A DNA stretch of 64,000 nt from Heterodontus francisci (lineage: Eukaryota): positions 32,132,432 through 32,196,431 of the forward strand of contig NC_090411.1 of NCBI RefSeq assembly GCF_036365525.1, in the 5' to 3' direction. Both the position numbers and the translations under genes were made by a program. Under the pieces are notes generated by a model, which saw nothing but the letters and a program-made list of their open reading frames with translations, was not told where the DNA came from and ran no database searches. Each line of letters begins with the position of its first letter. The first letter of the stretch is position 1. Positions 1 through 63,124 of the stretch are shown here, in pieces.

Positions 1-109
1 GCATCTCTTTCCACACTTGCTTTGCAAAGACACATTCCAAGAGGAGGTGGGCGACCGTCTCTTCCCCACCACAGCCACTGCGGGGGCATTGTGCGGAGGG
101 GGCGAGACT

Positions 110-3100
110 TCAGGTGTGCATGAAGGATCTGACAGGGAGGGCCCTTCTCACCACCAGCCAAGCTACGTCTTGGTGCTTGTTTGAAAATTCTGGTGATGAG
201 GCATTCCGCCAAATTACTTTGACGGTCTGCTCGGGGAACCATCCGACAGGATCCACCGTCTCCTTTTCCCGTAGGGCCTTGAGGACATTCCGTGCAGACC
301 ACTGCCTGATGGACCGGTGGTCAAAGGTGTTTTCCCGCAGAAACGGCTCCACGAAGGATAGGTGGTACGGCACGGCCCAACTGCATGGAGCGTTCCGCGG
401 CAATGTGACCAGGCCCATCCTTCGCAACACCGGGGACAGATAGAACCTCAGCACGTAGTGACACTTGGAGTTTGCATACTGGAGGTATACACACAGCTTG
501 ATACAGCCGCACACGAAGGTGGTCATCAGGATGAGGGCCACGTTGGGGACATTTTTCCCGCCCTTGTCCAGAGATTTGAACATCGTGTCCCTCCGGACCC
601 GGTCCATTTTAGATCCCCAGATGAAGCGGAAAATGGCTCGGGTGACTGCCACGGCGCAGGAGTGGGGTATGGGCCAGACCTGTGCCACGTAGAGCAACAA
701 CGTGAGCGCCTCGCACCTGATGACCAGGTTCTTATCCACAATGGAGAAAGATCGCTGCCCCCACATGCCCAACTTTTGTCGTACCTTGGCTACTCGCTCC
801 TCCCAGGTTTTGGTGCACGCCCCAGCCCTTCCGAACCATATCCCCAGCACCTTCAGGTAATCTGACCTGACGGTGAAGGGGACAAAGGATCGGTCAGCCC
901 AGTTCCCAAAGAACATGGCCTCGCTCTTGCCGTGGTTAACTTTGGCTCCCGAGGCCAGTTCGAACTGGTCGCAGATGCTCATCAGTCTGCGCACGGACAG
1001 CGGAACCGAGCAGAAGACGGCGACGTCATCCATGTACAGGGAGGTTTTAACCTGAGTGCCTCCGCCACCTGGGATTGTCACCTCTCTTATGCTCGCATCC
1101 TTCCTAATAGACTCAGCAAAGGGTTCAATACAGCAAACAAACAAGACCGGGGAGAGAGGACAGCCCTGTCTGACTCCAGATTTGATCGGGAAACTTTCCG
1201 ATTCCCACCCGTTGATTGAGACTGCGCTACTGATGTTTGTGTGGAGCAGTTGGATCCAATTGCAGATTCCCTCCCCAAACCCCATTTTGGAAAGCACGTC
1301 CATCATGTAGGTGTGCGATATCCTGTCAAAAGCCTTCTCCTGGTCCAGGCTGATGAGGCAGGTGTCCACCCTCCTGTCCCGCACGTAGGCGATCGTATCC
1401 CTGAGTAGCGCGAGGCTATCAGAGATCTCCCTGCCGGGTACAGTACAGGTCTGATCGGGGTGAATCACCAACTCCAGAGCAGACTTGACTCGACTGGCTA
1501 TGACTTTGGACAGAATCTTGTAATCAACATTAAGCAGTGAGATGGGCCGCCAATTTCTGATTTCTGCCCTCTCCCCCTTCCGCTTGTAAATGAGGGTGAT
1601 GAAGCCTTTCCTCATGGATTCTGACATGCTGCTGGCCAGGAGCATACTCTCGTATACTTCCAGCAGGTCCGGGCCGACCCAGTCCCACACGGCCGAGTAC
1701 AACTCGACCGGTAAGCCGTCGCTCCCGGGAGTTTTACTCGTCTCGAAGGACTCGACGGCTTTTGTCAGCTCGTCCAGAGTTAGCGGCTTGTCCAATCTCT
1801 CCCTCCTGCTGTCATCTAAGACCTCTGTGATAGATGACAGGAAGGACTGGGAGGCTCTGCTGTCTGTGGGCTTCGCGTCATACAGCCCAGCATAAAAGGA
1901 TTTGCTGATCCTTAGTATGTCGGACTGCGAAGACGTTACCGAGCCATCTTCTTCCTTCAGGCTGCTGATAACAGAGCTCTCTCTGTGTACCTTTTGGAAG
2001 AAGTATCGCGAGCACGTCTCATCCTGCTCGATGGAGCGGACTCTGGACCGGAAGATGATCTTGGAGGCCTCCTTGGCAAAGAGCGAGGCCTGCTGGCTCT
2101 TCACCTCTTGGAGGTCCTCCTTGACCTCGACCCCCATTGACTGCAACCGGAGTAGATTTTGCATAATTTTCTGGAGTCGGGACATTTCCCTCTGTCTCTC
2201 TCTCGCCTTCTGAACACCTTTGTGGATGAAGAACCTCTTGATGTTCTCCTTGATCGCTTCCCACCAGTGAACTGGAGACTCAAAGAGGGGTTTCACGGTC
2301 CTCCAACCTTTGTAATCCCTTTTGAGTTCCTCAACGTTCTCTGGGGTCAGCAATGTAGCATTGAGCTTCCATGCCCCTCTGCCAACCCGCTGGTCATCCT
2401 GTAAGTGACAGTCGGCCAGTAAGAGGCAGTGGTCGGAGAAGAACACCGGCTTGACGTCGGTGGATCCGACCATGACAGCACGGGACACAAACAGGAAGTC
2501 AATCCTGGAACAGGCAGACCCGTCCGATCTTGACCATGTGGATCTGCGCTGCGCTCCGTCTGCAGTTTTGCTGAAGACGTCGTGCAGTTTGGCATCTTTA
2601 ACTGTTTCCATTCGGAATCTGGACGTAGCGTCCAGTTTGCTGTCGTCACTGCCGGATCGTCCAGCCGCATCGATGATGCAGTTGAAGTCACCGCCTAGGA
2701 TGACCAGCCTGGACGTCGCCAGCAGCAGTGGGAGCTGCTGGAAGACGGTCAGCCGCTCGCTGCGTTGTACCGGGGCGTACACGTTGATCAACCGGAGCGG
2801 AGCGTTGTTGTACATCACGTCTGCTACGAGGAGGCGACCGCCCACCACCTCCTTAACTTCGGAGATGGTGAAGTTACCTCCCCGCAGCAGAATACCCAGG
2901 CCGGAGGAACGGCAATCTTTACCCCCCGACCAGATCGATGGCCCGTGGGACCACCATCGCGACCACTGCCTGTAGGTGCTGAGGTGTGGTATTCCACACT
3001 CCTGCAGAAACAGTAGGTCGGCTTTGACCTTGGCAAGGTAATCCAAGGTTGAAACACATCGCGTAGTAGATTTAATACTACGCACATTAATGGAAGCAAT

Positions 3101-3112
3101 TCTTACACCCAT
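110..3112 (-). CDS. Tx1 ORF2: AP-endonuclease plus reverse transcriptase, prematurely terminated
   Basis: 1000 aa with EN motifs (SINVRS, LQE, GDFN, SRID, SDH) and RT motifs (WRPISLLNVDYKI, DQEKAFD, GVRQGCPLSP, YMDD). After the TGA at 110-112 the same frame continues into a C-terminal zinc knuckle (CPRSGCGGEETVAHLLLEC), so the stop is a nonsense mutation. Confidence 0.92.
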   Translation of the reverse strand: MGVRIASINVRSIKSTTRCVSTLDYLAKVKADLLFLQECGIPHLSTYRQWSRWWSHGPSIWSGGKDCRSSGLGILLRGGNFTISEVKEVVGGRLLVADVMYNNAPLRLINVYAPVQRSERLTVFQQLPLLLATSRLVILGGDFNCIIDAAGRSGSDDSKLDATSRFRMETVKDAKLHDVFSKTADGAQRRSTWSRSDGSACSRIDFLFVSRAVMVGSTDVKPVFFSDHCLLLADCHLQDDQRVGRGAWKLNATLLTPENVEELKRDYKGWRTVKPLFESPVHWWEAIKENIKRFFIHKGVQKARERQREMSRLQKIMQNLLRLQSMGVEVKEDLQEVKSQQASLFAKEASKIIFRSRVRSIEQDETCSRYFFQKVHRESSVISSLKEEDGSVTSSQSDILRISKSFYAGLYDAKPTDSRASQSFLSSITEVLDDSRRERLDKPLTLDELTKAVESFETSKTPGSDGLPVELYSAVWDWVGPDLLEVYESMLLASSMSESMRKGFITLIYKRKGERAEIRNWRPISLLNVDYKILSKVIASRVKSALELVIHPDQTCTVPGREISDSLALLRDTIAYVRDRRVDTCLISLDQEKAFDRISHTYMMDVLSKMGFGEGICNWIQLLHTNISSAVSINGWESESFPIKSGVRQGCPLSPVLFVCCIEPFAESIRKDASIREVTIPGGGGTQVKTSLYMDDVAVFCSVPLSVRRLMSICDQFELASGAKVNHGKSEAMFFGNWADRSFVPFTVRSDYLKVLGIWFGRAGACTKTWEERVAKVRQKLGMWGQRSFSIVDKNLVIRCEALTLLLYVAQVWPIPHSCAVAVTRAIFRFIWGSKMDRVRRDTMFKSLDKGGKNVPNVALILMTTFVCGCIKLCVYLQYANSKCHYVLRFYLSPVLRRMGLVTLPRNAPCSWAVPYHLSFVEPFLRENTFDHRSIRQWSARNVLKALREKETVDPVGWFPEQTVKVIWRNASSPEFSNKHQDVAWLVVRRALPVRSFMHT

Positions 3113-3125
3113 TTTTTACTAAAAA

Positions 3126-4655
3126 TTAGTTGTTGCTTCCCATACCATTTGTCCTCGCTAGTCCCAGTCCTTCCCCTTCGGGATGTTCCTGCATACCCAT
3201 CGTGTGCGCAAGCAGTTTCACATTGGTTGGGCTCAGAAACCCCTCCTGCTTTTTCATGCAGTGTTTGTTCTGCTCGGGTGACATCGGGGGGGTCTTGTAG
3301 GCAGAGAGGATTGGGTTGTCCTCAGCTGCTTCCATCTGTTCCTCCTCGAAAACATCACTGCTCCCGGCTTCCCGGAGCTGAGGTGCGCCAGACGTGTCTT
3401 TGCTCCCGGTGTCCCGGAGCTGAGATGCGTTGGCCACGTCGTTACGTGTGGCGGGTTGGGGCACGCCGGGCCCATCACAGCTTCCAGTGCCCGGGGGCTG
3501 GGATGCTTTATCATCCATCTCGGAGTTCTGCCACCTCTTTTGAAGGGGCTGTCGTTCCAGCATTTCCCCGTCCAGTGAAGAGGAGTTGTTGCAGTCTGAT
3601 TCAGAAGATAGCCTCCTCTTGCCACTGGTTTGGGTGGTGGCCTGTTCCGGTTAGTGTTGTTTTTTCTTTGTGGTTTTCCTCCGGACCACTTGCCACTGAC
3701 CTGTTTGTCCATCTGCTGCCTCCTCCTCCATTGATTCTGTCTGTGGAGGAGGGGTTTCCGGCCGCTGGGTAGGTGCTGGGTCGCTGGTTTCAGCTGCCTC
3801 TCCTTCTTTCTCAGGTTGAAGTTCCTCGCTGCGGAGAAGGTTGCTGGTCTCCTTTCGAACACCGGACGCCTTCGTCGAACCTTCTCCCGGCCTTTCCTTG
3901 GACCTTGCTGCCTGAGCATAACTGAGGCAGCGTTTGGGGCAGGTTTTGTAGAGATGGCCTGCCGCACCACACAAGTTGCAACACTTAGTCTGCTTACAGT
4001 CCTTGGTCTGATGGCCTTCCTTCTTGCAGTTCTTGCAAACAACCGTGCTGCAGTTGGCTGCCATGTGACCAGATTTGCCACAGGTGTCGCAAACTCTGGG
4101 CTGCCCAGCGAAGACCAAGAAGCCTCGCCTTCCCCCGATAGCGAAGCTGGAGGGAGGGTGGATGATGGCTCCACTGGGATCTACCTTCAAGGTCACCTTG
4201 ACCTGCCGCTTGCTGGTCCAAATCCCAAAGGGGTCCTTGACATCAGTGCTGCTGCCAGCCACCTCGACGTACCTGGCGAGAAAGGTGAGTACATCCACCA
4301 CCGGAACATGGGGGTTGTAGAGGTGAATCGTCACCACCCGGTCCCGTTGTGACGGAAGCGTGAAGAGCGGCTCCGCTGTGAGGATTGACAGTGGAGCCCG
4401 GTCCCCTTTCTCCTTGAACGCCTTCAGGAACTTGATGCATCCCGCCACGTTCCGGAACGTCACGTCGAAGTAGCCACTGCTGGGGAAATCCTGCAGGCAG
4501 AAGACGTCCGTCGCTTGAAATCCGCAGCAATCAAAGAGAATTTTCTTGATGAAGAAGGTGCGATCGACCGGTGCATCTCCTTCCTTGTCCTTCACGACCA
4601 CCCGAACGGTGTTGCGCACTCCCTGGCCTGAAGCTCAAAGATTGGTTATAGCCAT
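3126..4655 (-). pseudogene. Tx1 ORF1 (zinc-knuckle, ZCCHC3-like nucleic-acid-binding protein), disrupted
   Basis: ORF 3651-4619 has three CX2CX4HX4C knuckles. An in-frame ATG at 4655 is followed by TGA at codon 7. A frameshift near the A-run at about 3660 separates the C-terminal part, which ends at 3126, 13 bp before the ORF2 ATG. Confidence 0.8.
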
Positions 4656-4718
4656 TTTACTCAAAGCCTACCCAGGATCAAAAGGCAATGATCATGGTCT
4701 CTTCTCAATCAAATAAGC

Positions 4719-4769
4719 ACTGATAAGAACAGATACTACACTTGATCTTAGCCAAAAGGCCGAGAAGCG
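4719..4769 (-). ncRNA. RNU2: U2 snRNA 5' fragment (nt 3-53), fused to the 5' end of the Tx1 element; not a complete gene
   Basis: Reverse complement reads CGCTTCTCGGCCTTTTGGCTAAGATCAAGTGTAGTATCTGTTCTTATCAGT, matching vertebrate U2 including the branch-point recognition sequence GTAGTA. Confidence 0.95.
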
Positions 4770-5690
4770 TCTCCATTTGTGACAGTGATTTTTGGGGCAG
4801 GCTTGATGGACCAGTTGGTCATTTCCTGCCCATCAATTCTTTCTGTTAGATGAATCCTTTTATGGTCAACTTTCAATGTGACTAAAGATTATTTGAAGCT
4901 GATTAAAATGATGATACTCGGATGTTCTCTAACAGTCTGGCTTATCATGGGTTCATTGAGCAGAGAAAGTGGCCACTCAGCCTATCGTGCCTGTGCTGGC
5001 TCTTTGAAAGAGGTATTCAATTATACCCAGATACATTTTCTGTTCAGGTGGGTCAACTGTGCCCATTGGTGGCATCTCTCCCAAGAGGCTCGCGACTGTA
5101 GTGTGATGTGAATCACTGCCACCCTGTCTTGCCCATCTAAAACAGAGATTTAATCCAAGACAACACATCTCATCACCTAATCTAGGACTGGACCACTTCT
5201 GGAATGAAACTAGATGTCAACACATTGGATCTCGGAGAAACACCAATGTGAGGCAAAAGATCCAGTGGACAGATGATGAGAATTATTTTTAAGCAACGAG
5301 TTTTGAAGATCTGGAATGCACTAACTGAACGGGTGGTGGAACAGGTTCAATAATAACATTGAAGAGGGAATTGGACTTCTACATGAAAAGTAAATAAATT
5401 ACAGGACTCTGGGGAAAGAGCAGGGGAGTGGAACTAATTGAATAGCTCTTTCAAAGAGCCAGCAGAGGCACGATAGGCTGAGTGGCCACTTTCTCTGCTC
5501 TATGAACCCATGATAAGACAGACTGTTAGAGAACATCCGAGTATCATCATTTTAATCAGCTTTAAATATTCTTTAGCCACATTGAAAGTTGACCATAAAA
5601 GGATTCAGCTAACATAAAGAATTGATGGGCAGGAAATGACCAATTGGTCCATCAAGCCTGCCCCAAAACACACTGTAGCAAATGGAGACG
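4768..5690. repeat. Inverted repeat: arms 4768-5023 and 5435-5690, spacer about 410 bp
   Basis: Arms are reverse complements (cgtctccatttg...caatta versus taattg...caaatggagacg), with about 14 mismatches in 255 bp by eye. Confidence 0.9.
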
Positions 5691-5955
5691 TGTCTGTGGG
5701 TGACACTGTGTTCAGTAATGTTCACTCCCTCACTCTCACATTTCCATTTCTCTGTGGAGTGGTTGGTTTGCAAATTCACTCAAGCCCACTTGATTGCTTT
5801 CAATATTGTATCAGCTCCACGGTTCCTTGCAAGTTACAAACTGGGTCAACTTATGAAAAGCCACTTCAGCGAAAGTAACAATCATTTAATTTGAATGAGA
5901 GCATTAAACAATAAGACATTTTCAGATTTGAAGACGGTTAAGGAGCCCTAAAGTA

Positions 5956-6150
5956 ATGACATCATCGAGACTAATCTCCAAAGCCTGCCTGCGTTCCAAA
6001 GCTCTGATTGGCTCTGGGTTTCAGCCCCTCCCCCACACCCCCTCTCCTTTGTTAATTGGTGCCTGGATTCATGGGAGATTCCTGACTGATTACCATTATT
6101 GGTGATGTCATTTCTTGTTTGAATGTAGGCTGACCCAGTAGTATAAATAC
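5956..6150 (+). promoter_or_regulatory. Ferritin copy 1 proximal promoter
   Basis: ATGACATCA block, inverted CCAAT (ATTGG 6007-6011), GGGAGATTCC (6073-6082), TGATGTCA, TATAAA (6142-6147). The same ordered blocks precede all 8 genes. Confidence 0.75.
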
Positions 6151-6245
6151 AACAGCTTGGGTCAGGTAGTGTATGTTCTAAAGCTGCTTTTTTTTTTTAA
6201 AAAAAAGGTGATATTGAGTAGTAATAGTATATAGAAGTAGTGAAA

Positions 6246-12183
<5,938 letters not shown>

Positions 12184-28410: not shown

Positions 28411-28951
28411 CCATCTAAAACACAGATTTAATCCAAGACAACACATCTCATCACCTAATCCAGGACTCAACCACTTTTGCAACGAAACCAGATGTCAACA
28501 CATTGGATCTCAGACAAACACCAATGTGAGACAAAAGAACCAAAGGGGAGAGATGAGAATTACTTTTAAGCAGCGAGCTGATATGATCTGGAATGCACTG
28601 TCTGAAAGGGTGCTGGAAACAGATTCAATAATAACTTTGAAGAGGAAGTTGGATATATACTCGAAAAGGAACTAAATTGCAGGGCCATGGGGAAAGTCCA
28701 AGCCAATGCGACTGATTGGATAGCTGTTTCAATGAGCCAGCATAGGCACGGTGGGCTGATTGGCCTCCTTCTGTACTGTATAAACCTACTATAAGTCAGA
28801 GTATCATCATTTTAATCTGATTCAAATATTCTTTAGCCTCATGGAAAGTTAACCATAAAAGGACTCATCTAACATACAGAATTAATGGGCAGGAAAAGAC
28901 AGCTGGCCCATAAAGCCTGCCCCAAAACACACTACAGCAAATGGAGACGGG

Positions 28952-29879
28952 GCTTATTTTTTTCTTTCATGGGTTGTGGATGTCGCTGGCAAGGCCAGCA
29001 TTTGTTACTCATTCCTAATTGCCCTTGAGAAGGTGCTGGTGAGCCACCTTCTTGAACCTCTGCAGTCCGTGTGAGGTACACCCACAGTGCTGTTAGGGAT
29101 GGAGTTTCAGGATTTTGACCCAGCGACAGTGAAGGAACGATGATATAGTTCCAAGACAGGATGGTGTGTGACTTGGAGGGGAACTTGCAGGTGGTGCTGT
29201 TCCCATGTGTCTGCTGCCTTTATCCTTCTCGGCGGTAGGGGTCACGTGTTTCGAAGCTGCTGTTCAAGGAGCCTTGGTGAGTTGCTGCAGTGCATCTTAC
29301 AGATGGTACACACTGCTGCCACTGTGTGGACAGAGTGTGGATGGGGTGCCAATCAATGGGGCTGCTTTGTCCTGGATGGAATTAAGCTTCTTGAGTATTG
29401 TTGGAGCTGCGCTCATCCAGGCAAGTGGAGAGTATTCCATCACACTCCTGACTCGTGCCTTGTAGATGGTTGACCAGTTTGGGAGTCAGAAGGAGAATTA
29501 CTCACCACAGAATTCCTAGCATCTGGCCCACTTTTGTAGTTACGGTATTTATATGGCTGGTTCAGGCAAGTTTCTCTTCAATGGTAATCTCCAGGATGCT
29601 GATGGTGGAACATTCAGTGATGATAGTACCGTTGAATGTCAAGAGGAGATGGTTAGGTTTTCTCGTGTTGGATTGTCATTGCCTGGCACCTGTGAATGTT
29701 ACTTGCCAATTATCAACTCAATCCTAAATGTTGTCCAGGTCTTGCTGCTTGTCGACACTGGGAGTTTCAGTATCTGAGGAGTTGCGAATGGTACTGAACA
29801 CTGTGCAATCATCAGTGAACATCCCCACTTCTCAATTTATGATGGAGGGAAGATCATTGATGAAGCAGCTGAAGATGAT
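28952..29879 (-). mobile_element. CR1/L2-group LINE 3' fragment
   Basis: Minus strand encodes STIYKARVRSVMEYSPLAW (RT C-terminal region) with a T-rich tail at the left end. It interrupts sequence that is contiguous in unit 1 (aatggagacg|tgtctgtgggtgac). Confidence 0.7.
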
Positions 29880-37534: not shown

Positions 37535-38737
37535 CCACAAAGTGAGTTAAATAGATTTTCTCCTCCCACCACCCCCTTCCTTAACCTCAACATTTTCTCT
37601 CCCTTCAGTTTAGAAACTCAATACCAGCAGCTACTTCATAAATGTATCAATTTGTACTTCGTCACATTGTACATTTCATACCAAATAGGAAGCATCCATT
37701 GCAAATCCTACAAGATCTTCACTTGTCCCCTTCACACTTATCAATAGGTTCATATGTTGATGCTACAATTGTAATTATCCAACGTTTACAAGTTAATTTT
37801 GGGATTGTAGTTGAGAACCGGACGGTATGCAATGACATTGCAGGCTTCAGCAATTGGGAATAGGCCGCACACAAGCAGTAGTACCTTTAAGATGAACAGG
37901 TGAACAGCCAGGTGGAAATCTTAAAGGCAATTAGAGGGAACAGTGATCTTCACTCATTCCATTTGCATCTCTCACCGAGGTTCCCAGTCACCTTATTCAA
38001 CGATCACCATTGTGTGAAAATTCACAAATAGCAAAGGATGCATCTCATCACATTGAGCTTTTCATACTGATCAACATCCCTACTCTCTACAAGTAGTGAT
38101 ACTGAATTCAAAGAGGTCCTGTGGAAATGATCAGTCAATAGTTCCCTCAGAACCAGTAACCACAGGCCTTATACAAAGTCTCTGCTGTCCACCTGGGTGG
38201 CCATTGAGTGACCATGTGATGTCCATCAGTTTGGTCAAAACCCTTTGTGACTGCAGAACGTTCACTGCATCTCGGATACTTTTTGACCAGAACAGGTGTA
38301 AATACCCGGATGCATTTTCTGTTCAGGTGGGTCAACCGTGCCCGTTGGTGGCATCTCTCCCGAGTTGCTTGTGACTGTAGCATGATTGGTGGCTCTGAAT
38401 GTGAATCGCTGCCACCCCGCCTGGCCCATCTAAAACAGAGATTTAATCCAATGCAACACATCTCATCACCTAATCCAGGACTGAACCACTTCTGTAATTA
38501 AACCAGATCTCACAGCTTTAGATTTCAGAGAAACACTAACGTGAGGCAAAAGAACCAGAGGGTAGATAATGAAATTTATCTTTATCAAATTCCTTTGCAA
38601 AGAAACAAACTTGGTCAGATTATAAAAAGCTGCTTTAGCAAAAAATAGCAAATTATCATTTAATTTGAGGTTGTGGTGCTAGAATGTTAAACCACGAGGT
38701 TCTTTCAGATTTGAGGAATGTCAAGGAACCTTTAGGA

Positions 38738-42989: not shown

Positions 42990-43875
42990 TGGTGGGATGT
43001 CTTCTCTCGGTGAACCTTTGCTGATGGCTGTGATGGCCAATCCTTGAGAGGCAGATTCTGCCACATTCTTGCACATGAAGTTACCAAGTGACAATGAGTT
43101 GTTGTTGACCTTGGTGCCTGTGCCAATCTATGGCCATTTGTTGCCATGGTACTGCATGCCAGTCCGCAGCATATGTTGCCAGCTAGTGACTCCCAGATGC
43201 AATAGTCAACGTTTAGGGTCTTCATGTCACGCTTGCAAGCGGCCTTGAAGTGGAGCTTTGGGCACCCCACCCGTCGTCTGGCTCTGGTTACCTCACCGTA
43301 CTTTGGGTATGCGACCATCTTCCATCCTGCAGATGTGTCCGATCCACCGAAGCAGCCTCTGTTTGATTCGTGCCGATACACTTGGGAGCTCTGCCTTTGA
43401 GAGGACTGCTGCATTTGTTATTTTGTCCTGCCAGGACATACCCATAATGCACCACAGACAGCATAGATGGAAATTATTGAGCTTTTTCTGGTAGCTGTAA
43501 GTTTCCCATGTTTCACAGCCGTACAGCAAGGTGTTGAGAACACAGGCTTTATAAACTATCAGCTCGGTGTTATCCCATGCATGTTTTGCAAGTCGGCCAA
43601 AAGGGGGTAGCTGCTTTCCCTATGTGCATCAATCTCTGCATCAAGGGACAGAGTGTCTGTCACCATGGACCCAAATTAGCAGAATCTGATAACCACTTCC
43701 AGTCGGGTGTTATTCAGTGTGATCAGGGGCAGAGGAGCAACACCTCGTCCCATGACTATGGTTTTGTTGACGCTAGTAGTCAAGGAGCACTAGTTACAGG
43801 CACGGGAGGGACAGTCCGTGAGTCTTTGTAACTGAGTTTCCATGTGAGCTGTATCCAATGTAGTCCTTCTGGAGG
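42990..43875 (-). mobile_element. Old degenerate RTE LINE fragment
   Basis: LLYGCETW, WIGHICRMEDGRIPK and ACKRDMK remnants. Paralogous to 51555-52432, 60145-61030 and 35820-36015. Confidence 0.78.
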
Positions 43876-45567
43876 GAGTGAACATATTTCATTAAATGCA
43901 TGAAGCAAATAACCCAAACCACAAAGCGAGTTAAATAGATTTTCTCCTCCCACCACCTCCTTCCATACCCTCAACATTTTCTCTTCCTTCAGTTTAGAAA
44001 CTCAATACCAGCAGCTACTCCATAAATGTATCAATTTGTATTTCAGCACATTGTACATTTCATACCAAGTAGGAATCATCCATTGCAAATCCTACAAGAT
44101 CTTGACTTGTCTCCTTCACACTTATCAACAGATTCATATGTTGATGCTACAATTGTAATTATCCAACGTTTACAAGTTAATCTTGGGATTGGAGTTGAGA
44201 ACCGCACAGTATGCAGAGATTGCCGACTTCAGCAATTGGGAATAGGCCGCACACAAGCAGCAGTGCCTTTAAGATGAACAGGTGAACAGCCAGGTGGAAA
44301 TCTTAAAGGCAATTAGAGGGAACAGTGATCTTCACTCATTCCATTTGCATCTCTCACCGAGGTTCCCAGTCATCTTATTCAATCTTCGCCATTGTGTGAA
44401 AATTCACAAATAGCAAAGGATGCATCTCATCACATTGAGCTTTTAAAACTGATCGACATCCCTACTCCCTACAAGTAGTGATACTGAATTCAAAGAGGTC
44501 CTGTGGAAAGGATCAGGCAATAGTTCCCTCTGAATCTGTAACCACAGGCCTTATCCAAAGTGTCTGCTGTCCACCTGGGTGGCCATTGAGTGACCATGTG
44601 ATGTCCATCAGTTTGGTCAAAACCCTTTGCGACTGCAGGACATTCATTGCATCTCGGATACTTTTTGACCAGAACAGGTGTAAATACCTGGATACATTTT
44701 CTGTTCAGGTGGGTCAACCGTGCCCATTGGTGGCATCTCTCCTGAGTTGCTTGTGATTGGTGGCTCTGGTCGTGAATCACTACCACCCTGTCTGGTCCAT
44801 GTAAAACAGAGATTTAATCCAAGGCATCACATTTCATCACCTAATCCAGGACTGAACCACTTCTGCAATGAAACCAGATGTCACAGCTTTAGATGGCAGA
44901 GGAACACAAACATGAGAAAAAGAACCAGTGGGGGAGATGAGGAGATTTATTTTTACACAGATCCTTACAAGTAACAAACTTGATCAGATTATAAAAAGCT
45001 GCTTTAGCAAAAATAGTTGTGATGCTAGAACGCTAAACCACGAGGCACATTCAGATTTGAGGAATGTCAAGGAACCTTTAGGAAGGGTGCAGAGGAGGTT
45101 TACCAGGAATTTACCAGGATGAGGGACTTCAGCTATGAGGAGAAGTTGCAAAAGTTAAGACTGTTCTCCACGGAACAGAGAAGGTGAAGAGGTGACTGAA
45201 CAGAGATCTTCAAAGTGATGAGAGGGTTTTGATAGAACAGATAGAGAACAATTATTATCTCTGGCAAGTGGATCAATAACCAGAGGTCATAGATTCAAAA
45301 TCATTGACAAAGAATCTAGAGAGAAGATGAGAAATTTTTCATTGAGACAGTTCTCGGGATCTGGAACGCTCGACCTGAAAAGATGCCGGAAGCCGATTCC
45401 AGAAATAATTGTAATGGGATTGGACGGGTGCCTGAGGATCAGAAACGTAATGGGCAATGGACAAAAAATAGGGCAATAAGCATGACTGCTCCTTCCATGA
45501 GCCAGCACAGTCACAAAGGGCCGAATGGCCTCCTGTGCTTTAAGTTTCTATGACTGTAACCCAAAAG

Positions 45568-45768
45568 CAGTGAGACTAAGCTCCCAAATCTGCCTGTACC
45601 TCAAAGCTCTGATTGGCTCTGGGCCTCACTCCCTCCCCAATACCCCATCCCCTTTGTTCATTGGTGCCTAGATTCATGGGCGATTCCAGACTGGTTATTA
45701 GGGATGTCAATCATCATTGGTGATGTCATTGCCTGTCTGAAATCAGGCTGTTCCAGTGGTATAAATAC
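45568..45768 (+). promoter_or_regulatory. Ferritin copy 6 promoter
   Basis: ATTGG, GGGCGATTCC variant, TGATGTCA, TATAAA at 45760. Confidence 0.7.
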
Positions 45769-45847
45769 AGGAGATTGTGGTAGAAAGAGTTAATGCTGGA
45801 ATTTACTAGGTGATAGTGAGTAGTAATAGTATATCGTAATAACTAAG

Positions 45848-48068
<2,221 letters not shown>

Positions 48069-49124
48069 ATGAACTGACTGCAGGGATCAAGCTTGCTGTC
48101 TTTACTGCTCATGTTTTCTATTTGTGTGTGTATGCAAGTTTGTGGAGTTGAGACCTGGTCTCTTTAATGTGAAATGTAATAACTAAATAAACTGCTTAAT
48201 ATTGGACTAGAATTTGCTTCCTTGGAATTGTTTAAATCTGCTTGCTCTTGCATAACAGCATCTTTAAACATTATAAAACATTCAACAATGCTGTACAAGA
48301 CTGAACAAAATATGTTTCTCTGAGGCACAAAAGGAGACCAGGGAAAAGCTTAGTCAAAGTGTCTTGTTTCTAAAGGAGTGATGGGAAAGAACTCCAGAAG
48401 CTAAAGTACAAAGAGCTGTTACCACTGGTGCTGAATATTCTCTGCCTCAATTTCAACTCTCTCGAACCCCCCCTAAATACACAAATATTAGCTGCAACTT
48501 GTGAAAATGCAAAGGATGTTTGGTGTGAATTCATGTGCTTTTTTTTTCAGTCCCAGTCTCTGCCCGAGGGCTGAGCAGTTCTGGTATTTAATAAGCTACC
48601 AATCACAGTCTGAGTTCTTGTGCCATACACCTGGTGAACTTCACTCATGTAAACCATAACTGCTGCTTCTGCCTTCCTGCTATGGCTATTGTACTCACAA
48701 TGTCTGAATTCCAAATACTGAAGGGTATTACAATTGGAAATTAACCTGCTATGCCATAATTTCAGTCTTTCAGGGGGAGGAAGTATGGATTCTGGGGACA
48801 AAGAGGGACTGGTACTGTAAATCTTACACCACCTCTCTTCATCTAGGCTCTTATTTCCTTCCATAAAAGCTTGGATAAGGCGGAGAATGTGTGGAAATGT
48901 CCTCCAATCTAATCCTTTCGGAAGCAGTGAACATATTTCCTTAAATGCATAAAGCTCTTAAACCACATATTGGCATCCCTTCCACCTATGAAAGATGATT
49001 GCCATTAAGCAAACAATCCATTTAGAGTCATTTACAGCACATAAAGAGGCCATTCAGCCCACTGAGTCCATGCCAGCTCTCCACAGAGCTATGCTGTCAG
49101 TCCCAGTCCCTGGCACGATCCATG

Positions 49125-51540
49125 TACAAAGAACAGTACAGGACCAGGCCATTCGGCCCTCCAAGCCTGCGCCGATCTTGATGCTTGCCTAAACTAAAAC
49201 CTTCTGCGCTTCCGGGGTCCGTATCCCTCTATTCCCATTCTATTCATGTATTTGTCAAGATGCCTCTTAAACGTCTCTATGGTACCTGCTTCCACCACCT
49301 CCCCCAGCAACAAGTTCCAGGCACTCACCACCCTCTGTGTAAAGAACTTGCCTCGCACATCCCCTCTAAACTTTGCACCTCTCACCTTAAACGTATGTCC
49401 CCTAGTAACTGACTCTTCCACCCTGGGAAAAAGCTTCTGACTATCCACTCTGTCCATGCCGCTTATAACTTTGTAAACCTCTATCATGTCACCCCTCCAC
49501 CTCCATCGTTCCAGTGAAAACAATCCGAGTTTATCCAACCTCTCCTCATAGCTATTGCCCTCCAGACCAGGCAACATCCCGGTAAACCTCTTCTGTACCC
49601 TCTCCAAAGCCTCCACGTTCTTCTGGTAGTGTGGCGACCAGAATTGCACGCAATATTCTAAGCGTGGCCTAACTAAAGTTCTGTGCAGCTGCAACATGAC
49701 TTGCCTATTTTTATACTCTATGCCCCGACCGATGAAGGCAAGCATGTATCTGCCTTCTTGACTACCTTATCCACCTGCATTGCCACTTTCAGTGACCTGT
49801 GGGCCTGTACGCCCAGATCTCTCTGCCTGTCAATACTCCTAAGGCTTCTGCCATTTACTGTATACCTCCCACCTGTATTAGACCTTCCAAAATGCATTAC
49901 CTCACATTTGTCCGAATTAAACTCCATCTGCCATTTCTCCGCCCAAGTTTCCAACCGATCTATATCCTGCTGTATCATCTGACAATCCTCATCACTGTGC
50001 GCAACTCCACCAACCTTTGTGTCGTCCGCAAACTTACTAATCAGACCAGCTACATTTTCCTCCAAATCATTTATATATACTACAAACAGCAAAGGTCCCA
50101 GCACTGATCCCTGCGGAACACCACTAGTCACATCCCTCCATTCAGAAAAGCACCCTTCCACTGCTACCCTCTGTTTTCTATGACCGAGCCAGTTCTGTAT
50201 CCATCTTGCCAGCTCCCCATGTGACTTCACCTTTTGTATCAGTCTGCCATGAGGGACCTTGTCAAAGGCTTTACTGAAGTCCATATAGATAACATCCACT
50301 GCCCTTCCTTCATCAATCATCTTTGTCACTTCCTCAAAAAACTCAATCAAATTAGTGAGACACAACCTCCCCTTCACAAAGCCATGCTGCTTCTCGCTAA
50401 TAAGTCCATTTGTTTCCAAATGGGAGTAAATCCTGTCCCGAAGAATCCTCTCTCATAATTTCCCCACCACTGACATAAGGCTCACCGGCCCATAATTTCC
50501 TGGATTATCCTTGCTACCCTTTTTAAAGAAAGGAACAACATTGGCTATTCTCCAGTCCTCTGGGACCTCACCCGTAGCCAATGAGGATGCAAAGATTTCT
50601 GTCAAGGCCCCAGCAATTTCTTCCCTTGCCTCCCTCAGTATTCTGGGTAGATCCCATCAGGCCCTGGGGACTTATGTTTAGTTTAGTTTAGTTTAGAAAT
50701 ACAGCACTGAAACAGGCCCTTCGGCCCACCGAGTCTGTGCCGACCATCAACCACCCATTTTATACTAATCCTACACTAATCCCATATTCCTACCACATCC
50801 CCATTTGTCCCTCTATTTCCCTACCACCTACCTATACTAGGGGCAATTTATAATGGCCAATTTACCTACCAACCTGCAAGTCTTTTGGCTTGTGGGAGGA
50901 AACCGGAGCACCCGGAGAAAACCCACGCAGACACAGGGAGAACTTGCAAACTCCACACAGGCTGTACCCAGAAATGAACCCGGGTCGCTGGAGCTGTGAG
51001 GCTGCGGTGCTAACCACTGCGCCACTGTGCCGCCCAACACCTCCTCCTTTTTGATAATGAGATGACTGAGACTATCTAGACTCCCTTCCCTAGGCTCATC
51101 ATCCACCAAGTCCTTCTCCTTGGTGAATACTGATGCAAAGTACTCATTTAGTACCTCGCCCATTTCCTCTGCCTCCACACATAGACTCCCTTCTCTGTCC
51201 TTGAGTGGGCCAACCCTTTCCCTGGTTACCCTCTTGCTCTTTATATACATATAAAAAGCCTTGGGATTTTCCTTAATCCTGTTTGCCAATGACTTCTCAT
51301 AACCCCTTTTAGCCCTCCTGACTCCTTGCTTAAGTTCCTTCCGACTGTCTTTATATTCCTCAAGGGATTCGTCTGTTCCTAGCCTTCCAGCCATTACGAA
51401 TGCTTCCTTTTTCTTTTTTGACTAGGCTCACAATATCCCGCGTTATCCAAGGTTCCCGAAACTTGCCGAACTTATCCTTCTTCCACACAGGAACATGCTG
51501 GTCCTGGATTCTAATCAACTGACGTTTGAAAGACTCCCAC
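49125..51540 (-). mobile_element. 5'-truncated CR1 LINE interrupted by a SINE
   Basis: ORF2 pieces 50837-51394, 49718-50419 ([17 protein letters not shown]) and 49194-49745. Confidence 0.88.
50676..51035 (-). mobile_element. V-SINE (HE1-like) nested in CR1
   Basis: Same family as 14845-15192; (CTAAA)n tail. Confidence 0.85.
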
Positions 51541-51554
51541 TAGGAGTGGGAGGT

Positions 51555-52432
51555 GGGAGGTCTTCTCGGTGCACATTTGCTGATGGCTGTGAAGGCTATT
51601 CCTTGAGAAGCAGATTCTGCCACAAGTGTTGCAAGTGAAGTTACCAAGTGACGCTGCGTTTTTGGCCTTGGCGCCTGTGCCAATCTACTGTGGCCATTTG
51701 TTGTCATGGTACGCCATTTCCCCCTTTTACCAGCTAGTGACTCCCAGATGCAATAGTCAACGTTTAGGGTCTTCATGTCACGCTTGCAAGCGTCCTTGAA
51801 GTGGAGCTTTGGGAGCCCCACTGGATGTCTGGTTCTGGCTACCTCACCATACTTTGGGTATGCGACCATCTTCCATCCTGCAGACGTGTCCGATCCACCG
51901 AAGCTGCCTCTGTTTGATTAGTGCCAACACACTTGGGAGGACTGCCACATTTGTGATTTTGTCCTGCCAGGATATACCCACAATGCACCACAGACAGCAA
52001 GATGGACATTATTGAGCTTCTTTTCCTGGTAGCTGTAAGTTTCCCATGTTTCACAGCCATACAGCAAGGTGCTGAGAACACAGGCCTTATAAACCATCAG
52101 CTTGTTTCTAAGGGTCAGCTTGATGTTATCCCATGAGCGTTTTGTGAGTTGGCCAAAGGGGGTAGCTGCTTTTCCTATGTGTGTATCGAGCTCCGCATCA
52201 AGGGACAGACTGTCTGTCACCATGGACCCAAAGTAGCAGAATCTGCTAACCACTTCCAGTCGGGTGTTATTCAGTGTGATCAGGGGCAGAGAAGCAACAC
52301 CTTGTCCCATGACCATGGTTTTTTTGACGCTTATAGTCAAGAAGAACAAGTTAAAAGCAGAGGAGAGACAGTCCATGAGTCTTTGTAACTGAGTTTCCAT
52401 GTGAGCTGTATCCAATCTAGTCCTTCTGGAGG
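51555..52432 (-). mobile_element. Old RTE LINE fragment
   Basis: LTISVKKT, YFGS, SLDAELDTHIGKA, VYKACVLSTLLYGCETW. Confidence 0.8.
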
Positions 52433-54134
52433 GAGCAAACATCTTTCATTAAACGCATAAAGTGAATAACCTAAACCACAAAGTCAGTTCAATAGATTTT
52501 CTCCTTCCCCACCCCCTTCCTTAACCTCAACATTTTCTCTTCCTTCAGCAGTTGCTCCAAAAGTGTATCAATTTGTATTTCAGCATATTGTACATTTCAT
52601 ACCAAATCCATTGCAAATCCTACAAGATCTTCACTTGTCTCCTTCGCCCTTACCAATAGATTCATATGTTGATGCTACAATTGTAATTATCCAATGTTTA
52701 CAAGTTAATTTTGGGATTGTAGTTGAGAACCGCACAGCATGAAATAACATTGCCGACTTCAACAATGGGAAATAGGCCGCACACAAGCAGCAGTGCCTTT
52801 AAGATGAACAGGTGAACAGCCACGTGGAAATCCTAAAGGGAATTACAGGGAACAGTGATCTTCACTCATTCCATTTGCATCTCTCACAGAGGTTCCCAGT
52901 CACCTTATTCAATTTTTGCCACTGTGTGAAAATTCACAAATAGCAAAGGCTGCATCTCATCACATTGAGATTTTCATACTGATCAACATCCCTACTCCCT
53001 ACAAGTAGTGACACTGATTTCAAAGAGGTCCTGTGGAAAGAATCAGTCAATGGTTCCCTCTGAACCAGTTACCACAGGCCTTATACAAAGTCTCTGCTGT
53101 CCACCTGGGTGGCCATTGAGTGACCATGTGCTGTCCATCAATTTGGTCAAAACCATTCAGGACCGCAGGACATTCACTGCATCTCGGATACTTTTTGACC
53201 AGAACAGGTGTAAATACCCGGATGCATTTTCTGTTCAGGTGGGTCAACCGTGCCCGTTGGTGGCATCTCTCCCGAGTTGCTCATGACTGTAGCACGATTG
53301 GTGGCTCCAGATGTGAATCGCTGCCACCCTGCCTGGCCCATCTAAAACAGAGATTTAATCCAATGCAACACATCTCATCACCTAATCCAGGACTGAACCA
53401 CTTCTGTAATTAAACCAGATCTCACAGCTTTAGATTTCAGAGAAACACGAACATGAGGCAAATGAACCACAGGGTAGATAATGAAATTTATCTTTCCCAA
53501 ATTCCTTTGCAAAGAAACAAACTCGGTCAGATTATAAAAAGCTGCTTTAGAAAAAATAGCAAATTATCATTTAATTTGAGGTTGTGGTGCTGGAATGTTA
53601 AACCACGAGGTACTTTCAGATTTGAGGAATGTCAAGGAACCTTTAGGAAGGGTGCAGAGGAGGTTTACCAGGAATTTACCAGGGATGAGGGACTTCAGCT
53701 ATGAGGAGAAGTTGCAAAAGTTAAGACTGTTCTCCACGGAACAGAGAAGGTGAAGAGGTGACTGAACAGAGATCTTCAAAGTGATGAGAGGGTTTTGATA
53801 GAACAGATAGAGAACAATTATTATCTCTGGCAAGTGGATCAATAACCAGAGGTCATAGATTCAAAATCATTGACAAAGAATCTAGAGAGAAGATGAGAAA
53901 TTTTTCATTGAGAGAGTTCTCGGGATCTGGAACGCTCGACCTGAAAAGGTGCCGGAAGCCGATTCCAGAAATAATTGTAATGGGAGTTGGACAGGTGCCT
54001 GAGGATCAGAAACGTAATGGGCAATGGACAAAAAATAGGGCAATAAGCATGACTGCTCCTTCCATGAGCCAGCACAGTCACAAAGGGCCGAATGGCCTCC
54101 TGTGCTTTAAGTTTCTATGACTGTAACCCAAAAG

Positions 54135-54335
54135 CAGTGAGACTAAGCTCCCAAATCTGCCTGTACCTCAAAGCTCTGATTGGCTCTGGGCCTCACTCCC
54201 TCCCCAATACCCCATCCCCTTTGTTCATTGGTGCCTAGATTCATGGGCGATTCCAGACTGGTTATTAGGGATGTCAATCATCATTGGTGATGTCATTGCC
54301 TGTCTGAAATCAGGCTGTTCCAGTGGTATAAATAC
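54135..54335 (+). promoter_or_regulatory. Ferritin copy 7 promoter
   Basis: Near-identical to the copy 6 promoter; TATAAA at 54327. Confidence 0.7.
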
Positions 54336-54414
54336 AGGAGATTGTGGTAGAAAGAGTTAATGCTGGAATTTACTAGGTGATAGTGAGCAGTAATAGTATA
54401 TAGTAATAACTAAG

Positions 54415-56631
<2,217 letters not shown>

Positions 56632-57703
56632 CTGAACTGACTGCAGGGATCAAGCTTGCTGTCTTTAGTGCTCATGTTTTCTATTTGTGTGCATGCAAGT
56701 TTGTGGAGTTGAGACCTGGTCTCTTTAATGTGAAATGTAATAACTAAATAAACTGCTCAATATTGGACTGGAATTTGCTTCCTTGGAATTGTTTAAATCT
56801 GCTTGCTCTTGCATAACAGCATCTTTAAACATTATAAAACATTCAACAATGCTTTACAAGACTGAACAAAATATGTTTCTCTGAGGCACAAAAGGAGACC
56901 AGGGAAAAGCTTAGTCAAAATGTCTTTTGTTTCTAAAGGAGTGATTGGAAGAGGTTTGGGGAAAGAACTCCAGAAGCTAAAGTACAAAGAGCTGTTACCA
57001 CTGGTGCTGAATATTCTCTGCCTCAATTTCAACTCTCTCGAACCCCCCTAAATACACAAATATTAGCTGAAACTTGTGAAAATGCAAAGGATGTTTGGAG
57101 TGAATTCATGTGCTTTTTTTCAGTCCCAGTCTCTGCCCGAGGGCTGAGCAGTTCTGGTATTTAATAAGGTACCAATCACAGTCTGAGTTCTTGTGCCATA
57201 CACCTGGTGAATTTCACTCATGCAAACCATAACTGCTGCTTCAGCCTTCCTGCTATGGCTATTGTACTCACAATGTCTGAATTCCAAATACTGAAGGGTA
57301 TTACAATTGGAAATTAACCTGCTATGCCATAATTTCAATCTTTCAGGGGGAGGAAGTATGGATTCTGGGGACAAAGAGGGACTGGTATTGTAAATCTTAC
57401 ACCACCTCTCTCCCTCTAGGCTCTTATTTCCTTCCATAAACGCTTGGATAAGGTGAAGAAAGAGGAGAATGTGTGGAAATGTCCTCCAGTCAAATCCTTT
57501 TGGAAGCTGTGAACATATTTCATCAAATGCATAAAGCTCTTAAACCACATGTTGGCATCCTTCCACCGATGAAAGATGATTGCCATGAAGCAAACAATCC
57601 ATTTAGTCATTTACAGCACAGAAAGAGGCCATTCAGCCCATTGAGTCCATGCCAGCTCTCCACAGAGCTATGCTGTCAGTCCCAGTCTCTGGCACGATCC
57701 ATG

Positions 57704-60131
57704 TACAAAGAACAGTACAGCACAGGAACAGGCCATTTGGCCCTCCAAGCCTGCGCCGATCTTGATGCTTGCCTGAACTAAAACCTTCTGCGCTTCTGGG
57801 GTCCGTATCCCTCTATTCCCATTCTATTCATGTATTTGTCAAGATGCCTCTTAAACGTCTCTATGGTACCTGCTTCCACCACCTCCCCCAGCAACAAGTT
57901 CCAGGCACTCACCACCCTCTGTGTAAAGAACTTGCCTCGCACATCCCCTCTAAACTTTGCCCCTCTCACCTTCAACCTATGTCCCCTAGTAACTGTCTCT
58001 TCCACCCTGGGAAAAAGCTTCTGACTATCCACTCTGTCCATGCCGCTTATAACTTCGTAAACCTCTATCATGTCACCCCTCCACCTCCATCGTTCCAGTG
58101 AAAACAATCCGAGTTTATCCAACCTCTCCTCATAGCTATTGCCCTCCAGACCAGGCAACATCCCGGTAAACCTCTTCTGTACCCTCTCCAAAGCCTCAAC
58201 GTCCTCCTGGTAGTGTGGCGACCAGAATTGCACGCAATATTCTAAGTGTGGCCTAACTAAAGTTCTGTACAGCTGCAACATGACTTGCCTATTTTTATAC
58301 TCCATGCCCCGACCGATGAAGGCAAGCATGCCATATGCCTTCTTGAATACCTTATCCACCTGCGTTGCCACTTTCAGTGACCTGTGGGCCTGTACGCCCA
58401 GATCTCTCTGCCTGTCAATACTACTAAGGCTTCTGCCATTTACTGTATACCTCCCACCTGCATTAGACCTTACAAAATGCATTACCCCACATTTGTCCGA
58501 ATTAAACTCCATCTGCCATTTCTCCGCCCAAGTCTCCAACGGATCTATATCCTGCTGTATCATCTGACAATCCTCATCACTGTCCGCAACTCCACCAACC
58601 TTTGTGTCGTCCGCAAACTTACTAATCAGACCAGCTACATTTTCCTCCAAATCATTTATATATACTACAAATAGCAAAGGTCCCAGCACTGATCCCTGTG
58701 GAACACCACTAGTCACATCCCTCCATTCAGAAAAGCACCCTTCCACTGCTACCCTCTGTTTTCTATGACCGAGCCAGTTCTGTATCCATCTTGCCAGCTC
58801 TCCTCTGATCCCATGTGACTTCACCTTTTGTATCAGTCTGCCATGAGGGACCTTGTCAAAGGCTTTACTGAAGTCCATATAGATAACATCCACTGCCCTT
58901 CCTTCATCAATCATCTTTGTCACTTCCTCAAAAAGCTCAATCAAATTAGTGAGACACAACCTCCCCTTCACAAAGCCATGCTGCTTCTCGCTAATAAGTC
59001 CAATTGTTTCCAAATGGGAGTAAATCCTGTCCCGAAGAATCCTCTCTCATAATTTCCCCACCACTGACATAAGGCTCACCGGCCTATAATTTCCTGGATT
59101 ATCCTTGCTACCCTTTTTAAAGAAAGGAACAACATTGGCGATTCTCCAGTCCTCTGGGACCTCACCTGTAGCCAATGAGGATGCAAAGATTTCTGTCAAG
59201 GCCCCAGCAATTTCTTCCCTTGCCTCCCTCAGTATTCTGGGTAGATCCCATCAGGCCCTGGGGACTTATGTTTAGTTTAGTTTAGTTTAGAAATACAGCA
59301 CTGAAACAGGCCCTTCGGCCCACCGAGTCTGTGCCGACCATCAACCACCCATTTTATACTAATCCTACACTAATCCCATATTCCTACCACATCCCCACCT
59401 GTCCCTCTATTTCCCTACCACCTACCTATACTAGGGGCAATTTATAATGGCCAATTTACCTACCAACCTGCAAGTCTTTTGGCTTGTGGGAGGAAACCGG
59501 AGCACCCGGAGAAAACCCACGCAGACACAGGGAGAACTTGCAAACTCCACACAGGCAGTACCCGGAAATGAACCCGGGTCGCTGGAGCTGTGAGGCTGCG
59601 GTGCTAACAACTGCGCCACTGTGCCGCCCAACACCTCCTCCTTTTTGATAATGAGATGACTGAGACTATCTAGACTCCCTTCCCTAAGCTCATCATCCAC
59701 CAAGTCCTTCTCCTTGGTGAATACTGATGCAAAGTACTCATTTAGTACCTCGCCCATTTCCTCTGGCTCCACACATAGACTCCCTTCTCTGTCCTTGAGT
59801 GGGCCAACCCTTTCCCTGGTTACCCTCTTGCTCTTTATATACATATAAAAAGCCTTGGGATTTTCCTTAATACTGTTTGCCAATGACTTCTCATAACCCC
59901 TTTTAGCCCTCCTGACTCCTTGCTTAAGTTCCTTCCGACTGTCTTTATATTCCTCAAGGGATTCGTCTGTTCCTAGCCTTCCAGCCATTCCAAATGCTTC
60001 CTTTTTATTTTTGACTATGCTCACAATATCCCGCGTTATCCAAGGTTCCCGAAACTTGCCGAACTTATCCTTCTTCCGCACAGGAACATGCTGGTCCTGG
60101 ATTCTAATCAACTGACGTTTGAAAGACTCCC
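57704..60131 (-). mobile_element. 5'-truncated CR1 LINE, duplicate of 49125-51540, with a 411-aa RT ORF at 57778-59013
   Basis: [53 protein letters not shown]. Confidence 0.9.
59270..59629 (-). mobile_element. V-SINE (HE1-like) nested in CR1
   Basis: Same junctions as 50676-51035. Confidence 0.85.
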
Positions 60132-60144
60132 ACTAGGAGTGGGA

Positions 60145-61030
60145 GGTGGGAGGTCTTCTCTTGGTGCACATTTGCTGATGGCTGTGAAAGCTATTCCTTG
60201 AGAGGCAGATTCTGCCACAAGTGTTGCACGTGAAGTTACCAAGTGACGCTGAGTTTTTGGCCTTGGCGCCTGTGCCAATCTACTGTGGCCATTTGTTGTC
60301 ATAGTATGCCATTTCCCTCTTTTACCAGCTAGTGACTCCCAGATGCAATAGTCAACGTTCAGGGTCTCCATGTCACGCTTGCAAGCGTCCTTGAAGTGGA
60401 GCTTTGGGAGCCCCACTGGATGTCTGGTTCTGGCTACCTCACCATACTTTGGGTATGCGACCATCTTCCATCCTGCAGACGTGTCCGATCCACCGAAGCT
60501 GCCTCTGTTTGATTAGCACCAATACACTTGGGAGCTCTGCCTTTGAGATGACTGCCACATTTGTGATTTTGTCCTGCCAGGATATACCCACAATGCACCA
60601 CAGACAGCAAGATGGACATTATTAAGCTTCTTTTCCTGGTGGCTGTAAGTTTCCCATATTTCACAGCCATACAGCAAGGTGCTGAGAACACAGGCCTTAT
60701 AAACCATCAGCTTGTTTCTAAGGGTCAGCTTGATGTTATCCCATGAGCGTTTTGTGAGTTGGCCAAAGGGGGTAGCTGCTTTTCCTATGTGTATATCGAG
60801 CTCCGCATCAAAGGACAGACTGTCTGTCACCATGGACCCAAAGTAGCAGAATCTGCTAACCACTTCCAGTCGGGTGTTATTCAGTGTGATCAGGGGCAGA
60901 GAGGCAACACCTTGTCCAATGACCATGCTTTTAGTCAAGAAGAACAAGTTACAGGCACCGGAGAGACAGTCCATGTGTCTTTGTAACTGAGTTTCCATGT
61001 GAGCTGTATCCAATCTAGTCCTTCTGGAGG
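60145..61030 (-). mobile_element. Old RTE LINE fragment
   Basis: Duplicate of 51555-52432. Confidence 0.8.
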
Positions 61031-62736: not shown

Positions 62737-62943
62737 GGACATCGTTGAGACTAAGCTCCCAAATCTGCATGTACTTCAAAGCTCTGATTGGCTCTGAACC
62801 TCACTCCCTCCCCAATACCCCATCCCCATTGTTAATTGGTGCCTGGATTCATGGGAGATTCCAGACTGGTTATCAGGGATGTCAATCATCATTGTTGATG
62901 TCATTCCTTGTTTGAAATCAGGCTGTCCCAGTGGGATAAATAC
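62737..62943 (+). promoter_or_regulatory. Ferritin copy 8 promoter (TATA changed to GATAAA)
   Basis: Near-identical to the copy 5 promoter; GGGAGATTCC at 62853; gtggGATAAA at 62935-62940. Confidence 0.65.
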
Positions 62944-63022
62944 AGGAGACCATAGTAGAAAGGGTCATTGTTGGAAATTTCTAGGTGATAGTGAGCAGTA
63001 ATAGTATATAGCAATAGTGAAG

Positions 63023-63124
63023 ATGGCTTCCCAAGTGTGTCAGAACTACCACAAGGACTGTGAGGATGCTGTTAACAAGCAGATCAACCTGGAGCTCTAT
63101 TCCTCCTATGTTTACCTGTCCATG
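63023..63124 (+). CDS. fth1-like: Ferritin copy 8, exon 1; gene continues past the window end
   Basis: [34 protein letters not shown]|gtgag. The window ends inside the conserved acceptor-proximal motif agcatgaagctgtttaaat just before exon 2. Confidence 0.92.

Follow-up and report, generated by a model that had tools for sequence, protein, structure and literature searches.

A decayed Keno-lineage element with a U2 snRNA head and a snap-back-type 5′ junction in a shark ferritin cluster

Introduction

Keno is a member of the Tx1 clade that carries an AP endonuclease and is specific for U2 snRNA genes (Kojima and Fujiwara 2004, as cited in passages of PMC4494074, PMC4640811 and PMC6136364). Its 3′ flanks start at U2 nt 39, as do those of Utopia (passages of PMC4640811 and PMC6136364), and weakly specific Utopia families insert off target at U2-like sites (Utopia passages of PMC4640811). 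The crocodilian Tx1-Mar families cluster with Keno but target a Mariner element, and snRNA heads have been described among them, from U2 in Tx1-11_Crp and from U1 in Tx1-2_Crp, Tx1-2B_Crp and Tx1-4_AMi, with SINEU heads as well (passages of PMC4494074). The same passages treat the transcription of Keno-type elements and of the snRNA-headed SINEU and Tx1-Mar elements as an open question. R2 insertions show snap-back junctions, in many cases once the cDNA is full-length; those formed on nearby target DNA are less frequent (passages of PMC11371274).

Here we analyze 64,000 nucleotides of the shark Heterodontus francisci (contig NC_090411.1), referred to below as the window, which contain a Keno-lineage copy that has decayed, lies off target and combines a U2 head with a 5′ junction of the snap-back type. 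U2-headed Tx1 families have already been published (Tx1-11_Crp), and every ingredient of the window copy has a precedent. Like Keno, the window element has two open reading frames, with zinc knuckles in ORF1 and an AP endonuclease and reverse transcriptase (RT) in ORF2, the 5′ part of U2 stands directly before a short 5′ UTR, and the RT falls among elements that sit at U2 nt 38/39. Unlike Keno, it lies outside a U2 gene with no U2 promoter upstream, has a 5′ junction made of inverted flanking DNA and is decayed. It shares with crocodilian Tx1-Mar a Keno-related Tx1 body, a location outside U2 genes and an snRNA-derived 5′ end; however, Tx1-Mar elements mostly target the Mariner transposon (LTR elements for Tx1-4_AMi), whereas the window copy comes from a shark and sits at a U2-like site. 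The Tx1-Mar heads in those passages of PMC4494074 are a family-level property, and ours belongs to one copy. As with the reptile Utopia families in the passages of PMC4640811, a U2-targeting lineage would have inserted outside U2 genes at a short U2-like sequence, but Utopia is RLE-type and unrelated, and those passages describe no carried U2 heads. The junction resembles the snap-back of R2 PRINT (passages of PMC11371274), in which the 3′ end of the cDNA first primes extra synthesis on target DNA close by, using its opposite strand, and is then joined; R2 PRINT is an engineered system of the RLE class, whereas the window junction arose naturally in the germline long ago and includes a copy of 256 nt.

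Results

The element carries a U2 head directly before a short 5′ UTR

The sole RNA-family match in the 64-kb window was to U2 (Rfam RF00004, 58.1 bits against a gathering threshold of 46, E = 6.7e-9), and it was restricted to the 5′ 53 positions of the model. The match defines a 51-nt head, U2 nt 3–53, at 4719..4769 on the minus strand. The Keno nick position (nt 38/39) falls inside the head, which reaches 15 nt past it. At the first position, nt 3, the head has what we take to be the vertebrate U2 letter, and the Rfam consensus letter differs there; nt 3–4 are equally attributable to the adjoining copy of flanking DNA, with which they form a 2-nt microhomology. The head is followed on the same strand by a 63-nt 5′ UTR (4656..4718) that ends at the ORF1 ATG (4655). 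The 51-nt head before a short 5′ UTR and the CG microhomology at the upstream joint were both part of the original prediction, and both were borne out.

ORF1 (3126..4655, minus strand) has 509 codons and encodes two RNA-binding domains of the ZCCHC3 type and zinc knuckles (Pfam PF23057, PF23058 and PF00098), with premature stops at codons 7 and 335. ORF2 (1..3112, minus strand) starts with an ATG at 3112 and encodes an AP endonuclease and an RT (PF03372 and PF00078); it has a premature stop at 112-110, and its translated frame continues off the window. The 3′ end of the element lies to the left of the window, and no second piece was found elsewhere in the window. An ORF1 with RNA-binding domains and CCHC knuckles together with an ORF2 that joins an AP endonuclease to an RT is the Tx1-clade arrangement, here identified by Pfam. 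The ten best matches of ORF2 were 41–49% identical, those with names being amphibian, and the best matches included a Danio protein named transposon TX1. The element had been described as full-length, which holds for its 5′ side but not overall, given the stops in both frames and a 3′ end beyond the window.

Close relatives of ORF1 are present in the same genome. The part of ORF1 that was searched is 97% identical to the H. francisci protein P0121 (95% over 500 aligned residues), and 49–64% identical to the remaining shark and ray proteins that carry a name. Five separate chromosome-scale contigs of H. francisci contain relatives with 85–95% amino-acid identity to the window copy, and the proteins from these other copies begin at or after the ORF1 ATG and so are silent on the head. 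A search of viral contigs with ORF1 gave no match. A Mustelus protein annotated as PRDM7-like (P0141) has a fragment of this ORF1 family at its end, either by exon capture or by annotation fusion.

The insertion site is a repeated ferritin unit that has no U2 gene

Translations that are ferritin-like by eye revealed eight copies of ferritin exon 1 and seven each of exons 2 and 3 in the window. The neighboring gene (6246..8090, plus strand), whose exons 1–3 were located from translations and the paralog map, stands head to head with the element, and its coding exon 1 is ~1.2 kb from the insertion breakpoint. The cluster comprises at least eight tandem ferritin units at 6240-64000. Exons 2 and 3 are 96–99% identical between units and the non-coding parts mostly 70–85%, while 42991-55386 and 51552-64000 match at 92%. 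The element's flank belongs to a unit that is repeated together with the ferritin genes: native flank at 5023..5291 (plus strand) is 81–83% identical to six paralogous units. Five of these match from 5023 and the sixth from 5030, which places the insertion breakpoint at 5023/5024. The DNA upstream of the head had been taken for ferritin-cluster intergenic sequence; the ferritin cluster is real, but what adjoins the head is a 256-nt inverted copy of the flank rather than plain flank.

The six paralogous units thus display the empty site, and U2 is present in none of them, which supports an ectopic location. At the empty site, a partial match to U2 nt 39–51 lies 5 nt inside the breakpoint, at 38284..38296 (minus strand) in one paralogous unit, with equivalent matches at 23275, 44678, 53208, 61805 and 14067 in the others; the seventh unit (28xxx) lacks the homologous stretch. 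This match is on the element's strand and agrees at 10 of 13 positions in five paralogs and 11 of 13 in one. A 10/13 match so near the breakpoint is reached at 0.3–1.2% of window positions, depending on the window tried, a post hoc figure for what is one ancestral site. On sequence grounds, the match is suggestive of a target-like site.

As predicted, no obvious snRNA promoter precedes the head: no match to a PSE was found near it, and the window holds five matches where 4.7 are expected, judged by a vertebrate consensus, from which shark PSEs may differ. In place of the promoter-side U2 flank of an on-target Keno copy, the head is joined to an inverted copy of ferritin-unit DNA.

The 5′ junction contains an inverted copy of nearby flank

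The inverted copy, arm A (4768..5023, plus strand), separates the U2 head from the native flank and is 94.5% identical over 256 nt to the reverse complement of arm B (5435..5690, plus strand), 411 nt away. Arm B is native flank, colinear with the paralogous stretch 28715-28949 at 79%, and is the source of the copy; arm A matches the same stretch at 77%, and that unit has one arm only. Given its position, we infer that the inverted copy arose with the insertion, and it was likely templated at that time. On the head side, arm A has 2 nt in common with U2 (5/7 if extended, partly by eye), and on the flank side 1 nt. The unequal overlap points to priming by the cDNA 3′ end on the opposite strand at 5689-5690, followed by extension back toward the site. 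Alternatively, the flank's own 3′ end may have folded back, which would yield the identical sequence.

Between the arms, 14 of 249 positions are different (4775-5023 against 5435-5683), which indicates an old event and not a fold-back of the assembly. Ten of the 14 differences are transversions, and four are clustered in a 15-nt stretch close to the head. The idea that arm A was copied with errors was considered and not retained, as nine changes fall in arm A, three in arm B and two could not be assigned (polarized by eye, P = 0.15). We also rejected the reading of 4768-5690 as a MITE with long terminal inverted repeats, since the paralog is one-armed and six other units match the spacer colinearly. 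The arm end at 5690 coincides with the base at which a LINE-like RT fragment of 930 nt (28949-29879) lies in the paralogous unit; the coincidence may reflect a nick-prone site, a linked deletion or chance.

The RT groups with elements inserted in U2 genes

An ORF2 alignment supplied the best 80 of 485 metagenome loci and 22 loci from a genome collection for comparison. No shark copy was among these 80 and 22 loci (best segments 23–40% identical), and 8 of the 80 metagenome loci (best of 485) and 6 of the 22 genome-collection loci have a poly(A) that runs into U2 at nt 38/39. RT trees were built with FastTree (131 sequences, 10 dropped for short coverage) and with IQ-TREE (60 hand-chosen sequences, rooted on L099). 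In both, the window element is sister to amphibian proteins, and together they join the clade of the on-target element L002 with support of 0.934 (FastTree) and 99.6 (IQ-TREE). Outside this clade, the U1-associated element L001 comes next, followed by the on-target element L021 (97.6). The comparators in these trees are defined by their U2 junctions, the named Repbase Keno and Tx1-Mar sequences being absent. Grouping with U2-inserted elements places the window element in the Keno lineage, and the affinity to Keno foreseen from the U2 head is upheld by an RT nested with L002 and bracketed by L021.

Related elements carry U2, U4 and U1 heads

The 5′ U2 part of nine relatives ends at nt 22, 26, 26, 28, 29, 39, 41, 49 and 51, and since none of them ends at nt 53, which lies near the upper end of this spread, that end point is not diagnostic. 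In six of the nine, the short-leader ones, the leader is 29–127 nt long. These relatives, like the U4-headed loci below, come from short-read assemblies that can mix flanks, so that a 5′ flank is not reliably matched to its 3′ flank. The 5′ side of on-target L021 carries U2 nt 1–51, a 13-nt duplication that is near the 15 nt needed by the window element. On-target coral-type copies have an upstream 70 nt in common with intact U2 genes, indicating that master copies of this kind retain the U2 promoter region. L041 has a head of U2 nt 12–49 (244-282) with non-U2 sequence upstream and no U2 at its 3′ side within the contig, and is possibly another off-target U2-headed copy, from a distant animal.

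The closest parallel to the window copy, a related family of seven near-identical loci (L046, L047, L048, L051, L059, L060 and L063; 96–99.6% to L059), carries a head of U4 nt 1–35. The U4 head begins exactly at +1 in three, at nt 8 in three (probably one locus) and is absent from one, while the 3′ flanks are U4 in two, U5 from nt 39 in two and other DNA in three. In L060, the head begins at exactly U4 +1 directly behind a U5 fragment, which indicates transfer of an snRNA head to a foreign site; in L063, the upstream sequence resembles that of a U4 gene. From their flanks, these loci are a candidate U4/U5-targeting family that would carry its head to new sites.

Three Tx1-clade elements are joined to U1 at one or both ends, namely L001 (9-55 and ~5212-5228), L092 (~70-95 and 6013-6094) and L095 (7282-7404), with the 5′ part of U1 before the UTR and an A-rich tail followed by U1 from ~nt 36–40. 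They fall in two separate branches of the tree and are candidate U1-targeting non-LTR elements. Our literature search found no report of U1-targeting Tx1 elements, and the U1-targeting entry in the passages of PMC4640811 that list targets is Dada-U1 only. The contigs of L081-L091 and L102, filed under a bacterial MAG, are arrays of animal U1, U2 and 5S genes, within or among which several Tx1 elements lie, and are host contamination of the genome collection.

Discussion

We lean, with somewhat better than even confidence, toward the reading that a master copy residing in a U2 gene was transcribed and that this transcript inserted off target. The master copy would lie in a U2 snRNA gene at nt 38/39 with a 15-nt target duplication, and the U2 promoter would yield one RNA consisting of U2 nt 1–53 and the element; the duplication would account for a head that ends at nt 53. 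The endonuclease would then have nicked a degenerate U2-like site upstream of the ferritin gene, and reverse transcription would have proceeded to within 2–4 nt of the RNA 5′ end. Because no upstream U2 DNA was there to match for annealing, the cDNA 3′ end would have paired elsewhere, by 2 nt (5/7 if extended), with the opposite strand ~670 nt away. From there, 256 nt would have been copied back toward the site before joining to the flank with ~1 nt of homology. The new copy would have no snRNA promoter and would be dead on arrival unless read from a neighbor.

Several observations count for read-through from a U2 gene: the U2-less empty paralogs with a 10–11/13 target-like match 5 nt from the breakpoint; the placement of the RT in a clade with on-target L002 and with L021 just outside; the poly(A) joints at U2 nt 38/39 among the metagenome and genome-collection loci; and the 13-nt duplication of L021 together with the coral-type promoter regions and the carried U4 head of L060. 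The R2 snap-back junctions (passages of PMC11371274) and the off-target insertion of Utopia (passages of PMC4640811) add to these. Against it count the amphibian nearest relatives, which have no known target, and the Tx1-Mar families, which are Keno-like yet target Mariner. The ORF1 relatives on five contigs are equally compatible with a dispersed family and with a U2-bound one. The original prediction had gone further and drawn from the head a read-through transcript of a U2 promoter; the ectopic site, the Keno grouping and an nt-53 end as from a target duplication all stand, whereas the U2-promoter origin does not follow, since a fixed family head or a template switch would leave the same sequence. 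Our literature searches, including one on shark Tx1 elements, found no demonstration of U2-promoter transcription, read-through or Keno co-transcription, although subscription papers, Repbase Reports, figures and supplements may hold such data; the passages of PMC8869645 on Tx1 add nothing further on targets.

An alternative that we consider unlikely, but take seriously, is that the U2 head was acquired once and is fixed in a dispersed shark Tx1 family whose active copies are transcribed from flanking promoters. Tx1-11_Crp, in the sister group Tx1-Mar, is a published precedent (passages of PMC4494074), and H. francisci has at least five dispersed loci at 85–95% amino-acid identity. However, the head begins near the exact U2 +1 and is unchanged over 51 nt, a weak point as the probability of no change is ~0.23 at 2.8% divergence, and the empty site still resembles a U2 target.

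It is improbable that the head came from a template switch (or RNA ligation) to free U2 snRNA at nt 53 during insertion, in the manner of U6/L1 chimeras. Such switching is common across several LINE clades and includes U5 chimeras that are 3′-truncated internally (passages of PMC4476161), Kojima prefers it for SINEU heads while also raising flank transcription (passages of PMC4494074), and the junction already records one jump, onto flanking DNA. But the validated chimeras in those passages of PMC4476161 are mostly with U6 or U6atac, on mostly 5′-truncated LINEs and in mammals, whereas here the partner is the snRNA targeted by the lineage, the element is 5′-complete and the join is just past the nick site.

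We give very little credence to an on-target insertion in a U2 gene that was later rearranged into the ferritin cluster, losing its promoter and leaving an inverted duplication; inverted duplications can mark rearrangement breakpoints and the arm end at 5690 is an indel boundary in the paralogous unit, but a random rearrangement predicts neither a breakpoint 5 nt from a U2-like target nor a break in U2 2 nt from the RNA 5′ end. An assembly artefact as the source of the junction or of the inverted copy is hardly credible, because a fold-back would not be expected to leave 14 differences in 249 positions and a fraction of 0.75–0.77 of sampled words of 4400-7400 was present in four DNA runs (one sample, possibly the source of the assembly). 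The runs listed for this stretch included none of RNA, which has no bearing on expression.

If the favored reading of a U2-gene master copy is extended to the lineage, we tentatively propose, at a little under even confidence, that Keno-lineage LINEs are promoterless and are read from the snRNA gene they occupy. They would escape snRNA 3′-end termination and carry a cap-proximal head with an intact target site, off-target copies would record the true RNA 5′ end, and U1, U2 and U4 heads would be target switches among spliceosomal snRNA genes. In addition, the window copy preserves a snap-back 5′ junction of natural origin. A single decayed copy is not enough to decide the promoter question, yet it makes the question testable with existing shark genome and RNA data. 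If the U2 promoter drives the element, the fossil to expect is an off-target copy with a head that begins 2 nt from U2 +1 and stops 15 nt beyond the nick, and such drive, if true, would give snRNA heads a simple origin.
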